A stretch of DNA of 64,000 nucleotides. Origin: a virus. The position numbers and the translations under genes were made by a program. Position 1 is the stretch's first letter; every line of letters starts with the position of its first letter. Below the pieces are notes generated by a model, which had not been told where the DNA came from, did not search any database, and worked only from the letters and a program-made list of their open reading frames with translations. The stretch spans positions 1 to 64,000 of the IMG/VR virus record IMGVR_UViG_3300020020_000001. The stretch is one strand, 5' to 3'. Below, in pieces: positions 46,000 to 53,355 of this stretch.

Positions 46000-46876
46000 G
46001 TATTTAGTTATGATGGCCAATTATCTAGATAACTACTACCGAAGTTGGGATCATAGGTGTACTCGTATGCGAGGTCAAGATCTGCTTTTACTGGAAGACT
46101 TCTCCCTCGTGGTGCACTGCCATATACCTTACGCCCACAGAGGCAGCACTTACCATGAACGTCAGTGGATTTGTGCTCGCCACTGATGTCCTCTTTGCAT
46201 GCACCATTACGATTCAGGCGCGCCTCGTGCTCCTCACGTAGACGCGCCCGGACCATTAGTTCTTCAAAGCTAATCATTCGCTGTCCCAGAGTGCCTGATG
46301 CCTGTGGGGAAAGGTTTGGAAATCACCATCTTCAAGGTCTTTACGAGACATCTTCATCATAGTTCTTAGTTGGCTACGGAGTGTCGTTCGTGCATGACCA
46401 TTAGCTTCTTTACGGTATACCTGTTCGTGCCTACCACGAGCCCAGATGTGCTGGTTACCAAGATCATTTGCCCAATAACAACAGCCACGTCCAGACCAAG
46501 TGTAGCATTCTACAACGTTAGCTTGCATGTCGCAGATGCCGCGCTCGTGGTTGTGGTTCTCTTCTCTCCACTGTGGGTTTTGCATGAGCTTAACCCAGTA
46601 TGGTTTTGTTTTGTCCGTGTTGGACATGATGCCTTTCCACGCCCTGGTCTCTCCAGGTCGTTACCTATGCATCATGTCGACCTCCCAAAAAGCTTAGCGT
46701 AAGTTGATGATGTAATCATCATAACCATGGTTAACCAAATGCAGAATGTTACTAACCTTGCACCTGGATTGACTGAGAAAAGCATAGAGATGAGGACATC
46801 AATCCACATCACTATGACCAAAATCCATAGCAACATCCGCATGATTGGATGATCTATGAATTCTCTCATAGATCAT

Positions 46877-46948
46877 CTATTTTGGCTTTGGAGGATTAGC
46901 TGGTGGTACTGGAATGATTGGCCGTGGTGGTGTAGGCGTATTAGCCAT
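46877..46948 (-). CDS. Pro-rich micropeptide MANTPTPPRPIIPVPPANPPKPK
   Basis: AAGGAG RBS, ATG...TAG. Confidence 0.6.
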   Translation of the reverse strand: MANTPTPPRPIIPVPPANPPKPK

Positions 46949-46958
46949 TTTGTTCTCC

Positions 46959-47039
46959 TTAAATGAATTTCGGTCCTGGTGCTGACCTTGGCTTCGGCTT
47001 GGGCGGTGGAGGTGGCGGAGTCGACGGTCTGTTAGGCAT
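46959..47039 (-). CDS. Pro-rich micropeptide MPNRPSTPPPPPPKPKPRSAPGPKFI
   Basis: Start overlaps the end of the upstream micro-ORF by 8 nt. Confidence 0.6.
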   Translation of the reverse strand: MPNRPSTPPPPPPKPKPRSAPGPKFI

Positions 47040-47100
47040 TTGGTTTTGGTCTTGGTGGTGGTGGCGGAGGTGGTGGAGGAGGCTGTATAGGTCTAGGCAC
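47032..47100 (-). CDS. Pro-rich micropeptide MPRPIQPPPPPPPPPPRPKPNA
   Basis: AGGAG RBS, GTG start, 10 consecutive Pro using mixed codons. Confidence 0.6.
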   Translation of the reverse strand: MPRPIQPPPPPPPPPPRPKPNA

Positions 47101-47319
47101 TTCTTCTCCTATATGGAAATGGACCGAAATATGTACTAATCTTGTGGAAGAAATCCGGCATTCGCTTGACCAGGTTGCGCCATGGTAGGCTGATGACCAA
47201 CAACAATTTGCCTTCTAGTCATCTCTTTGGATACTTGCTCAAGTTGTCCATGCGCACGTTGCATGCGCTTTCTGACTGACTTCATTTTGTTGATGTAAGA
47301 TTCACCAGCTTCTTGTACT

Positions 47320-47820
47320 TCATTCCGAAGCTGTTCCATTTGCCATACAAGTTGGTTGTATTGGTTTATGATATCTTCGTTGGCCATTGACGCTCCTAGT
47401 AGTGATATTACATCTAAAGCAGGATACAACTAGATTGCTTATATCATTATTTAACTTATCAAAGTTAAGATGATCTGATAATATACCATGTATGCCACCC
47501 CATGTAAGAGTTACACCACACCAATTGCATTCATGTTCACAATCAATGGATTCACAACCAAGTGAATTCCATAAAACCAATCTATGTTCTCTAACAACTC
47601 CATTTTGTGGACTAGCTAATGGATGATTCCACATACCACTAAGTGATACATAACCATCTGCTATGTATCTTCTTATCGGTTCTTGTGTTGGTTCTGGAAC
47701 CTTTCTTCCTCTACGTTTAAGAGATTTATCACTAGTCCAGTAATCTTTACTTTGAACATACTTGCGAGCAATGCCTTCTAAATCCACGTTTAATGTCGCA
47801 CGGATATACGAAATATTCAT
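47320..47820 (-). CDS. HNH endonuclease
   Basis: EHRLV, CNWCG, DHLNFDKLNNDISNLVVSCFRCN; AT-rich. Confidence 0.8.
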   Translation of the reverse strand: MNISYIRATLNVDLEGIARKYVQSKDYWTSDKSLKRRGRKVPEPTQEPIRRYIADGYVSLSGMWNHPLASPQNGVVREHRLVLWNSLGCESIDCEHECNWCGVTLTWGGIHGILSDHLNFDKLNNDISNLVVSCFRCNITTRSVNGQRRYHKPIQPTCMANGTASE

Positions 47821-47879
47821 TATTGCACTGCTCACGAGCACATAATACAATAGGCATGGTGTTCCTTTGTTGTACTGAG

Positions 47880-47950: not shown

Positions 47951-48409
47951 TTGCCCTACCGATTGGGCGACATGGGATTGATACTATTCAATTGTAGGCC
48001 AAACAAGTTTTAGATATTCAACTATTTTCTTACGTCCATATTCCCAAGTTCCAACGTATGAATTTGATAACCAATATTTATGCCATTCATCATCGTCTAA
48101 TAGAATTTCCATAAGACGTTCAAATCTTTCGTTTTCGTTCATGCTTGTTAGACCTCGCTTGGCTTTATTAAGTTGTAGCAGTCCTCACAGTTGAAGAACA
48201 GATCATTCTCAGGATCACGAGCCTGATCCATAGTTATAGCTCTATCACCATAGACAGCATGTCCACACATGGATTGTAAGTTACTAGCATCAGGATCTAG
48301 TACATGTGTCGTTGGCTCTATTACTTCTGTCAACTGTGGCTCCAATTGTCCTGGAGTTTCCCATTCATACGCTTCACGCCAAGCGGGGTTACTAACAAGC
48401 ATGTTGATA

Positions 48410-48535
48410 TTAACGTGGTCTAGTTGGCTTAACTGGATGTGGTGGATCCTGGCGAGTTGGCTTAATTGGTTTACCAGGAACAGGCATTGGACGTGGTTCT
48501 GGTCTAGGATTTGATGGGTTGGGTCGATGTGCCAT
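48410..48535 (-). CDS. Pro/Arg-rich micropeptide MAHRPNPSNPRPEPRPMPVPGKPIKPTRQDPPHPVKPTRPR
   Basis: TAATG translational coupling to the upstream micro-ORF. Confidence 0.62.
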   Translation of the reverse strand: MAHRPNPSNPRPEPRPMPVPGKPIKPTRQDPPHPVKPTRPR

Positions 48536-48636
48536 TAACGTGGCCTATTTGGTGGTACTGGGTGTGGAGCTGGTCTTGGCTGTGGAGGTAATGGCCTAGG
48601 TTGTGGTCTCATGGGTGGATTTACTGGATGTGGCAT
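48535..48636 (-). CDS. Pro/Arg-rich micropeptide MPHPVNPPMRPQPRPLPPQPRPAPHPVPPNRPR
   Basis: Starts 4 nt after the upstream stop; ends RPR-TAA like its neighbour. Confidence 0.62.
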   Translation of the reverse strand: MPHPVNPPMRPQPRPLPPQPRPAPHPVPPNRPR

Positions 48637-48640
48637 TCTG

Positions 48641-48920
48641 TTACCCTTTGTTTATTGGTGGCGCATTAATCGTTATGACATGATGTACTAAGGCTTCATC
48701 TTTCTTATGTTTGTTGTAACCTTTCCAAAGGGAATATGAAAATATAGTTATGTATGTTAGAGCGGACGCTACGAATCCATACTGATGTGTAACGAATCCA
48801 TAGATGAACCACAGAATGTGGCCAGCAATATTGTAGTAGGCACCAACTCTTGGATGTCTAATGTAAAACCAGAATCCAAACGCACCGTTGGCGAATAATA
48901 ACCAACTCCACCAACTATTG
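48641..48920 (-). CDS. Small PnuC-like membrane protein (start uncertain)
   Basis: WSWLL...GAFG.W, LWFIYG....QYGF..SA; the track start overlaps tRNA-Ala. Confidence 0.5.
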
Positions 48921-48926
48921 TACACG

Positions 48927-49252: not shown

Positions 49253-49408
49253 ATATTCAGTTAGTTTTCCCAAGGCATATATGGCTCATTCATCCAGGCT
49301 TTTTCTGCCTGTTCTGCACGATATTTGAGCCAAGCACGAACATTTCGCCAGTTTTCTTTTGATGTGTGTAGTTTAGCCTTTAAGTGAAATGCTTGTAGTC
49401 TATTCACG

Positions 49409-49480
49409 TCGGGCAGGAGAGAATCGAACTCTCTACTTCTGGTACCCAAAACCAGCACTCTACCAATGAGCTACAACCCG
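49409..49480 (-). tRNA. tRNA-Pro(TGG)
   Basis: Cloverleaf. Confidence 0.9.
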
Positions 49481-51439: not shown

Positions 51440-53089
51440 TTAGATCCGTCCTGCACTAAAGTTTGCAATGAGTGACGGTAGGTTGGCGTCGCCACCACAC
51501 ACGTCAAGCATACCACGATCCGACGGGTCGGCAATGGTGAAATCTGTGGCGGTAAGTCCAACAACAACCAACTTGGCGTCAATGCCTGTCTTCTGTCGAT
51601 ATGTACGAAGTGCCTGGAATGGGTGTGGACGACCTGCGTACGTTTCGCTGTCTGTAATGACAACGAACGTGTCTACCGCAATGTTGTTTCGTTCAGCAAA
51701 CAACATTGGTAGTGAGCAGTCTGTTGACATGAATGGCCGAGAGACGCGCTTCATCACATCGTTCAGATCCATACTTGCAGTTAGACCTAGATCGACAAAC
51801 TGGCTACCAAACCCATAAACCTGGTAGTACGGCTCAGTGCGCATGATAGTCATGGCCATAGCTGCACCAACCTGCGCGCAGTTAAGGTCAATACCCATCG
51901 CTGGTGAACCCATTGAACCGGACACATCAAGGGCGAGCATTGTGCGCTTGTTCGCTGGTTCTACATACTTGAATGCCTTGTAGAAACCTTCGTTCAGCGC
52001 CGCAACAATTACTGGATTGGTGTTCCAGTCCTTGACTCGCTGAGTTGTGTAACTATAACCGGGTGGAGGTATGTCGCCAGGCTTCTTTGAACGCCAAATC
52101 TGACCGTTCTCGTGAACTGTCAGTGCAAGAAGGTACTGGATCGGGTGTAGCTTGGTACGTGCAATCATGCTTTCAGTTGTGAGTGCTGTTGCTACCTCAC
52201 GAGTGAATACCATGTCATTGAACGCACCAATACGAGCTAGCCGCGTGATGTTACGGACAAGCGCCTGACCCTTAAGCTGACCGTTATAGAACAGCTTCTT
52301 CCATACTTCAGCATTCTTAAGAAACTGCGTAGGTAGTGCTTCCCATGGTAGGAGTGGATGATCATTCAGAACATTTAGTACCGTCTGCACATTTTCCGCA
52401 CCGGAAACACGATCGAATCCAATAAGAATATCCGACCGCTCTTCAACAGATGCCATGTTAGGTAGAGGCTTGCCAAGGATAAAGCTACCGACACTCTTGT
52501 CAATACCCACAGGGTGTGACAAGCGGAACATGTCACGGTGGGTCCAACCATCACGCTGACGATACTTCACAGCCTGGTATGCAACCTGGTCTGGTGTCTT
52601 ACGCTCATACCAGCTTGCCACCGCAGCACGCTTTGATCGACCCCAACCACCAAGTAGCTCGATGTACTGAGTAAACTGGAACAGGTGTGTCGAAATGCGA
52701 ACTACCTTGGCAAAGGCGTCCTTGTTCTTACGCTTGCCGTAAGTGAACAGCGCAGCCATCACGAAGATAGCAGTGTTGTTACGGTAGGCGCGTCCACTTT
52801 CCGAAATCTCTGTTACTACCTGCTCGACTAATTCCTCATCGCGTCCGATCATCTCAATGACGAAGTTGATGTTCTCCTTGGTGAGCGGCTTCTCCTGTAC
52901 GTAGTAGGTACCCTTGTCAGTACCAAGAATCAGGAAACGCTCTAGCCGTGTGCGATCTGAGACCTGGAAGACAAATCCACCAGCGTTGTTGACAACCTGG
53001 TCTGGACGTGCCTGCACTGTCTGTGGGGTATCCTGAATTTCCATCAGTGCTTCGGTGATGGCGTCACGGTTCTTATCTGGCTTAGACAT
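51440..53089 (-). CDS. rsr: Ro60/TROVE-domain RNA-binding protein (Rsr ortholog)
   Basis: NNAGG..F....RL.RFLILGT.KGTYY, GGWGR, KYRQRDGWTHRD, ALVRN, vWA MIDAS DVSGSM, ITDSET, IADP.D.GMLD. Confidence 0.95.
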   Translation of the reverse strand: MSKPDKNRDAITEALMEIQDTPQTVQARPDQVVNNAGGFVFQVSDRTRLERFLILGTDKGTYYVQEKPLTKENINFVIEMIGRDEELVEQVVTEISESGRAYRNNTAIFVMAALFTYGKRKNKDAFAKVVRISTHLFQFTQYIELLGGWGRSKRAAVASWYERKTPDQVAYQAVKYRQRDGWTHRDMFRLSHPVGIDKSVGSFILGKPLPNMASVEERSDILIGFDRVSGAENVQTVLNVLNDHPLLPWEALPTQFLKNAEVWKKLFYNGQLKGQALVRNITRLARIGAFNDMVFTREVATALTTESMIARTKLHPIQYLLALTVHENGQIWRSKKPGDIPPPGYSYTTQRVKDWNTNPVIVAALNEGFYKAFKYVEPANKRTMLALDVSGSMGSPAMGIDLNCAQVGAAMAMTIMRTEPYYQVYGFGSQFVDLGLTASMDLNDVMKRVSRPFMSTDCSLPMLFAERNNIAVDTFVVITDSETYAGRPHPFQALRTYRQKTGIDAKLVVVGLTATDFTIADPSDRGMLDVCGGDANLPSLIANFSAGRI

Positions 53090-53355
53090 TTCGACCCCTT
53101 TCAAAGGGATATGTTACTGTCAGTTTGATGAGATTTTTGATTGATTTCCATAGTTCTTGGCATCTTATGGTAAGTACAGATGCTATGATCATCCAACGTG
53201 GGCAGCTAACGATGAATTGTAACATCTCACCTTGTAAGTGCATACATCTGGTACACCAATCGCCATCAATATCTTCGTCGCAAGGCTGTCCATCGTGGGA
53301 TAAGTCAATTGCTTTCATGAGTTGTTGTGCTTCATAGTGGAAATTTCTCGTCACG

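Follow-up and report, generated by a model that had tools for sequence, protein, structure and literature searches.

What could three consecutive micro-open reading frames (ORFs), all rich in proline codons, be doing among the tRNA genes of a phage? They lie in IMG/VR record IMGVR_UViG_3300020020_000001, an 80,170-bp soil-phage contig with direct terminal repeats that is rated complete, and the first 64 kb of this contig are the stretch analyzed here, hereafter called the window. An earlier sequence-only reading had described three consecutive polyproline micro-ORFs of 22–26 amino acids (aa) located inside the tRNA island; both the ORFs, here named P1, P2 and P3, and their location were confirmed, and all three are read from the minus strand. 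As possible functions it had suggested an EF-P or tRNA-Pro sink, stalling peptides or polyproline-II ligands. The most informative feature of the locus escaped that reading. An RNA hairpin joins the stop codon of P3 to the buried start codon of the next gene, which has no Shine-Dalgarno (SD) sequence and encodes a putative membrane protein of 65 aa, and this junction is the main new point of the present analysis. The elements concerned are as follows, from upstream to downstream.

47110-47106, minus strand: SD sequence AGGAG of P1, 5 nucleotides (nt) ahead of the GTG, read in the sequence
47100..47032, minus strand: P1, GTG start, 22 codons; ten consecutive prolines, then RPKPNA
47039..46959, minus strand: P2, ATG start, 26 codons; six consecutive prolines, then KPKP; no SD
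46960-46955, minus strand: SD sequence AAGGAG of P3, overlapping the P2 stop codon (TAA), 6 nt ahead of the P3 ATG
46948..46877, minus strand: P3, ATG start, 23 codons; three Pro-Pro pairs, C-terminus PPKPK
46848..46877, minus strand: RNA hairpin, an exact inverted repeat with a perfect 12-bp stem (46877-46866 / 46859-46848) and a 6-nt loop
46672..46869, minus strand: gene of the 65-aa membrane protein, no SD, start 7 nt past the P3 stop codon

How are P3 and the next gene connected? The P3 stop codon, UAG, occupies positions 46879-46877, and its last base, G, is at the same time the first base of the hairpin, whose 5′ arm includes the AUG of the next gene (46869-46867). In the predicted fold this AUG is fully paired. 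The folding energy is −17.5 kcal/mol (z = −4.6), none of 200 shuffles was as stable, and among 136 minus-strand ORF starts this is the second strongest structure at a start codon. No GGAG-type motif is found ahead of the start of the 65-aa gene. Its product is read as a two-helix membrane protein: one segment scored in a crude hydropathy scan, and a second hydrophobic stretch was recognized by eye. The protein has no family match in Pfam, PHROG, PADLOC or NCBIfam, and a word-indexed homologue search found none. A full HMMER search gave a single match (E = 2e-6), the uninformative repeat protein P0002. In this 153-aa protein, a motif similar to the first helix of the 65-aa protein occurs three times in tandem.

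The explanation that we favor, as a tentative choice, is a translationally coupled cassette, in which finishing a proline-rich ORF licenses the membrane gene and the output depends on the capacity for polyproline translation. P1–P3 would be genuine translated micro-cistrons, forming one coupled cassette with the SD-less 65-aa two-helix membrane gene. The strong SD of P1 would recruit ribosomes, which could restart on P2 through the AUG inside the end of P1; a second entry point would be the strong SD of P3, overlapping the stop codon of P2. When a stop codon is in the A site, the footprint of the ribosome extends about 7–9 nt past that codon. At the end of P3, such a ribosome would therefore unwind the greater part of the 5′ arm of the 12-bp hairpin and expose the buried AUG 7 nt downstream, at which it could restart. 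We infer that the hairpin would block free initiation; the membrane protein would then be made solely by ribosomes that completed P3, free 30S subunits being shut out. In essence, the mechanism would be ordinary translational coupling, with a proline-rich micro-ORF as the upstream partner.

Why should proline be used for such a partner? Since the upstream ORFs consist of proline runs (ten residues, six residues and three Pro-Pro pairs, respectively), the output of the cassette would be tied to the polyproline capacity of the infected cell, that is, to host elongation factor P (EF-P) and to Pro-tRNA including the one of the phage itself, as far as proline-dependent slowing proves relevant.

49408..49480, minus strand: phage tRNA-Pro (UGG), which reads CCA, the dominant Pro codon of the micro-ORFs

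EF-P is required for the translation of consecutive prolines, of which natural proteins of Bacillus subtilis contain at most four in a row (PMC12856214). Genes for EF-P and YebC were looked for in the phage and not found; because the phage encodes no EF-P, the polyproline capacity would depend on that of the host. The PPP sequence that marks EF-P-dependent polyproline stalling is contained in P1 (within ten prolines) and in P2 (within six), while P3 is limited to Pro-Pro pairs.

Arrest peptides and leader ORFs often act by opening mRNA structure. Their regulation of downstream genes has been described in several systems (PMC10951233, PMC7897499, PMC12992588), and in SecM, MifM and the RAPP-type peptides ApdA, ApdP and ApcA, as in this locus, a short Pro-containing ORF lies directly upstream of a membrane-related gene. 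In arrest-peptide leaders, the downstream start is hidden in an mRNA hairpin until a ribosome on the upstream ORF opens it, as is proposed here. Unlike in those leaders, the present hairpin sets in at the stop codon, and the AUG that it conceals has no SD, which points to reinitiation rather than exposure of an SD. The three ORFs in a row, the long proline runs of EF-P type and the phage setting are further differences. The R[AG]PP motif of RAPP/RGPP arrest peptides (PMC10951233, PMC12992588) is absent from P1–P3 and from two further proline-rich ORFs of this genome, PA and PB (described below), and no other known arrest motif is present. A position directly upstream of a gene with a structure-masked start, as in the RAPP/RGPP systems, is taken by P3 only (hairpin 46877-46848).

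Could such ORFs have arisen by chance? The proline-rich ORFs are beyond chance expectation. Runs of at least five CCN codons occur eight times in the window, all within P1 and P2, against 0.02 expected from shuffles. When the 1,045 ORFs of 20–60 aa on both strands of the 80-kb genome were ranked by proline, P1–P3, PA and PB occupied ranks 1–5, with proline fractions of 0.37–0.64 (P1 being the highest, 0.64), compared with 0.25 for the next ORF and a mean of 0.055. Thirty first-order Markov genomes contained on average 0.03 ORFs per genome with at least 35% proline, and about 1.4 Mb of Ro60-phage loci at similar GC content contained nothing comparable. All five ORFs are on the coding strand of the tRNA island. 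The 5-mer SD core, which precedes 2.9% of all ATG/GTG triplets and 28% of the long ORFs in this genome, is present at both members of P1–P3 that have no overlap coupling, namely P1 and P3.

The arrangement of the frames is not an assembly artefact, as the sequence is identical in independent samples. Contigs from two further soil samples, belonging to two other studies, cover 46987-47435, 46915-47065 and 46860-47010, thus spanning P1, the P1/P2 junction, the P2/P3 junction and P3, with zero differences. The same identity rules out a single gene broken by sequencing errors. No sequence variants at the locus are found among these contigs. An antisense Gly/Trp-rich ORF at 46963-47139 was also considered and rejected, as it has no SD and is on the wrong strand.

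How are the three ORFs themselves connected? The ATG of P2 is inside the end of P1 (ATGCCTAA), with an 8-nt overlap that takes in the P1 stop codon, and folding predicts the start region of P2 to be wholly unstructured (0 kcal/mol). Together with the SDs of P1 and P3, this agrees with the earlier description of the ORFs as either coupled or led by AGGAG. P1, P2 and P3 are in three different frames, each +1 relative to the preceding ORF, and the frame of each later one can be followed backward without a stop codon through the proline run of the previous ORF (46877-47100, minus strand). Because the frames are open through these runs, a +1 slip would yield P1-P2 or P2-P3 fusion peptides rather than an early stop. 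In P2, a CCC-A site, a classic +1-prone context, is found just ahead of KPKP, and the six-proline run is followed by KPKPRSAPGPKFI.

Each of the three ORFs has 10–14 Pro codons, corresponding to a proline content of 64% in P1, 46% in P2 and 43% in P3. The peptides have net charges of +3, +5 and +3, respectively, without any acidic residue. The last codons before the stop are AAT GCC in P1, TTC ATT in P2 and CCA AAA in P3. Pro codons in the micro-ORFs are mixed (CCA 66%, CCT 21%, CCG 9% and CCC 4%), and their rank order is that of the long ORFs (50, 23, 19 and 8%). Tandem Repeats Finder detects just a weak, degenerate 24-nt (TGG)n signal within P1. The codon counts and the weakness of this signal argue against a clean microsatellite, in agreement with what had been proposed from the mixed codons. 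P1 and P2 have a common MP(N)RP head and [RK]PKP tail, P1 and P3 have PRPI in common, and the tail motif PP[KR]PK(P) is common to all three, which look like paralogues on these grounds. At least P1 and P3 are probably translated, judging from their SDs, their strand, the packing of the operon and the reliance of the next gene on translation upstream of it.

Do relatives of the phage have similar ORFs? Megablast and blastn searches with an 851-bp stretch gave no match among 50,697 phage records, and the proteins of two neighboring genes, 117 and 85 aa in length, found nothing in IMG/VR. A search with the Ro60 protein of the phage led to a locus, L002, without the entire 41–51 kb segment, and one with its DUF5052 protein led to a high-GC, non-syntenic contig; an alignment of Ro60 covering 80 loci revealed none with comparable ORFs. 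The nearest relatives found are two 72-kb contigs, L026 and L185, with 78% identity in the DUF5052 protein and 27% in the 117-aa neighbor; both have tRNA islands and neither has the proline-rich ORFs. The relatives found by a metagenome scan with an alignment of the 117-aa protein were all distant and had none of the ORFs. Searches of 5.8 billion proteins for the 65-aa protein and of 1.8 billion for PB gave no informative homologue; for PB no homologue was found, and the ESM Atlas gave no usable match. Neighbor genes gave nothing in Pfam, PHROGs, PADLOC and NCBIfam except for an HNH gene. As judged from these searches, the proline-rich ORFs are lineage-specific.

A scan of IMG/VR for PPPPPP[KR]P[KR]P gave 101 stretches, which are mostly linkers in long proteins, for example SSB tails, and only one of them, L136, resembled a micro-ORF cassette. 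In this Mu-like contig (7777-8465, plus strand), a 38-aa ORF with a proline run and a KPKPPK end is located 14 nt ahead of a gene for a 185-aa two-helix protein, which has a sub-threshold similarity to SLATT_4. As in the present locus, a cationic proline-rich ORF adjoins a two-helix membrane gene; here the membrane protein is only 65 aa and the setting is a tRNA island. The 65-aa protein gives no SLATT signal in Pfam, NCBIfam or PADLOC, and BLASTP against the L136 protein yields E = 5.8. No homology connects the peptides, and the resemblance between P1–P3 with the 65-aa gene and L136 is one of architecture, not a demonstrated family.

These results bear on the possibility that the ORFs have no selected function. 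In that case they would have arisen recently within this lineage, in an accessory stretch rich in CCN, or would be what is left of a gene for a proline-rich linker, and there would be little or no translation of them. The ORFs are indeed orphans, conserved nowhere in the searches made, the motif is otherwise mostly a linker of long phage proteins, and open frames arise easily in C-rich DNA, which lacks stop codons in all frames. We nevertheless think this unlikely. Each fragment has its own start codon, with two perfect SD cores and two stop/start overlaps among them, and a single decaying gene would not acquire SDs and starts wherever it broke up. Moreover, all five ORFs are on the coding strand in a tightly packed operon, and the downstream SD-less gene would need a translated ORF upstream.

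Are P1–P3 alone in this genome? A genome-wide scan for proline-rich frames revealed a second cluster 1.4 kb upstream, bringing the number of such ORFs to five in two clusters.

48641..48925, minus strand: gene of a PnuC-like mini-protein, 94 aa, three-helix, directly upstream of PA
48636..48535, minus strand: PA, 33 aa, net charge +5
48535..48410, minus strand: PB, 41 aa, net charge +7, with a TAATG overlap with PA

All five peptides are cationic and nearly free of acidic residues. The PB stop codon is 7 nt ahead of the SD-less ATG of an 84-aa ORF, a layout similar to that of P3 and the 65-aa gene. The tails of PA and PB are paralogous: they form a 34-nt repeat of 79% identity in which PHPV-P--RPR-stop is kept. 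Three synonymous differences were counted by hand in this repeat, and the retention of PHPV-P--RPR despite them hints at selection on the peptide. A long-range inverted repeat of 24 nt (48140-48163 and 48378-48403) encloses the entire 84-aa ORF and contains the ATGs of this ORF and of the next one, of 52 aa. The o-spanin type, an Rz1-like proline-rich lipoprotein, was considered for the peptides and rejected, as none of the five has a lipobox cysteine or a hydrophobic leader.

The 94-aa protein has 47% identity to P0001, which carries PF04973, has a THQYGF motif and is related to the N-terminal part of PnuC. Its relatives of 68–130 aa are found in 21 IMG/VR phage loci, and together they look like a half-size PnuC family in phages. 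Both clusters adjoin a gene for a small multi-pass membrane protein; by comparison, a membrane helix is scored in just about 12% of minus-strand ORFs. Might the peptides themselves be the product that matters, as partners or regulators of the adjacent membrane proteins, the two-helix one after P3 and the PnuC-like three-helix one before PA? The cationic 22–26-aa ORFs with PP[KR]P tails do directly precede the 65-aa gene, and L136, with its 38-aa ORF directly before the 185-aa two-helix protein, provides one independent example. On the other hand, the 65-aa protein has neither a SLATT signal nor similarity to the L136 protein and is too short for a SLATT domain. The pairing with PnuC-like genes is not a family trait either, as no proline-rich ORFs follow the relatives in the 15 distinct loci inspected out of the 21. 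We regard a role as such partners as doubtful.

Is it rather the act of translating proline codons that counts? A precedent is CreT of the Pseudomonas aeruginosa type I-F CreTA, a 15-nt ORF in which two Pro codons must directly precede the stop codon (bioRxiv 10.64898/2026.06.02.729485). The order in P3, a strong SD, a tiny ORF with consecutive Pro codons and a hairpin, recalls that of CreT, with the reservation that the hairpin overlaps the start of the next gene and that P3 is longer; in both cases an effect is proposed from the translation of the Pro codons. Heavily translated Pro codons could accordingly serve as an RNA sink that traps ribosomes, EF-P or Pro-tRNA and reshapes host translation. 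The strong SDs of P1 and P3, the number of Pro codons in each ORF and the supply of a phage tRNA-Pro are consistent with such a sink. Several differences from CreT make it highly improbable. The ORFs here are of 22–26 codons (P3 has 23, versus 4), they end with NA, FI and PK, and Pro-Pro-stop is not found at the end of P1, P2 or P3, while CreT requires it. In addition, the hairpin covers the start of the next gene instead of capping a short RNA, there is no CRISPR context, and a global arrest would harm the phage, which has no EF-P or YebC of its own.

Another class to be compared is that of proline-rich antimicrobial peptides (PrAMPs), such as apidaecin, pyrrhocoricin and oncocin (PMC11549390, PMC11347161, PMC11678341), which are about 20–40 aa, at least 25% proline and cationic with PRP-type motifs, like the peptides here. 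PrAMPs are animal products that are secreted and subsequently imported, whereas the present peptides would be made inside the target cell. By composition, P1–P3, with 43–64% proline and net charges of +3 to +5, lie within the limits given for PrAMPs (proline at least 25%, net charge at least +1; PMC11678341). Could the translation or folding machinery be their target in trans, at the exit tunnel or on DnaK, as it is for intracellular PrAMPs? Apidaecin-type peptides do work inside bacteria (PMC11347161, PMC11549390), and active variants expressed there have net charges of +2 to +4 (PMC11347161). Furthermore, P3 (46880-46948) and the C-terminal half of pyrrhocoricin, as printed in PMC11678341, have seven consecutive residues in common, PTPPRPI.

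Several observations speak against such an action. The conserved C-terminal pharmacophore of apidaecin-type peptides, with its critical residues P11, R12, R17 and L18 (PMC11347161), is absent from P1–P3, whose C-termini (RPKPNA, GPKFI and PPKPK) include none with penultimate Arg and terminal Leu. The N-terminal YLPRP-type core of oncocin and pyrrhocoricin (PMC11678341) is not in P1–P3 either. For this one peptide, the match of PTPPRPI arose in 444 of 200,000 shuffles that kept the composition; it is post hoc, corresponds to a p of about 0.1 allowing for the number of known peptides, and is a lead only, which may reflect chance in low-complexity sequence. A sequence search of the PDB with P1, P2 and P3 gave no matches, and a lytic phage needs the ribosome itself. 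Action in trans on the machinery is, in our view, quite unlikely. We likewise hold it to be very unlikely that the peptides represent a cationic proline-rich family acting intracellularly, or after lysis, on the exit tunnel or chaperones, as a viral counterpart of the animal PrAMPs that is produced beside the tRNA set of the phage. Taken together, the negative motif tests argue against membership in the apidaecin-type, oncocin-type, RAPP and CreT classes.

What weighs against the coupled cassette itself? Of the three ORFs, P3 alone would be coupled directly to the membrane gene, yet its consecutive prolines do not go beyond Pro-Pro pairs, and ribosomes can load on it without P1 and P2. Folded gene starts may be common throughout this genome, as exemplified by the inverted repeat around the 84-aa ORF. 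A pure gate leaves unexplained why all five peptides are cationic and almost without acidic residues. Finally, no relative has these ORFs (80 Ro60-phage loci; L026 and L185; the PnuC-like loci, 15 distinct ones inspected out of 21), and they may be evolutionarily young.

As for the setting, the minus strand carries the genes from about 25 kb onward, and the tRNA island on this strand contains 23 tRNA genes between 42.2 and 59.9 kb. Interspersed among them are small ORFs as well as genes for Ro60/TROVE, a LysM-NlpC/P60 lysin and HNH proteins. The Ro60 gene is complete, with TROVE and vWA domains (51440-53104, minus strand), and related genes are found in at least 128 IMG/VR stretches. An HNH ORF (47850..47320, minus strand) overlaps the SD-led start (47393) of an 85-aa coiled-coil ORF by 74 nt (47320-47393), an unusually long overlap for this genome. 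An Rfam search gave tRNAs as the sole matches, with no family in the stretch of the micro-ORFs. The phage DNA polymerase has only about 29% identity to that of any cultured phage. The endolysin domain is similar to those of phages of Actinobacteria and Firmicutes, and capsid matches are mixed. Lysogeny genes were not noticed on the contig, though no dedicated search was made for them.

Our search of the literature found no description of proline-rich micro-ORFs beside small phage membrane genes. If the coupling is true, the locus would be a compact natural device by which the synthesis of a membrane protein is tied to polyproline translation controlled by EF-P and Pro-tRNA. The ten-proline run of P1 far exceeds the longest natural run of B. 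subtilis (PMC12856214), and the device would sit in a phage that brings its own tRNA-Pro into the cell.

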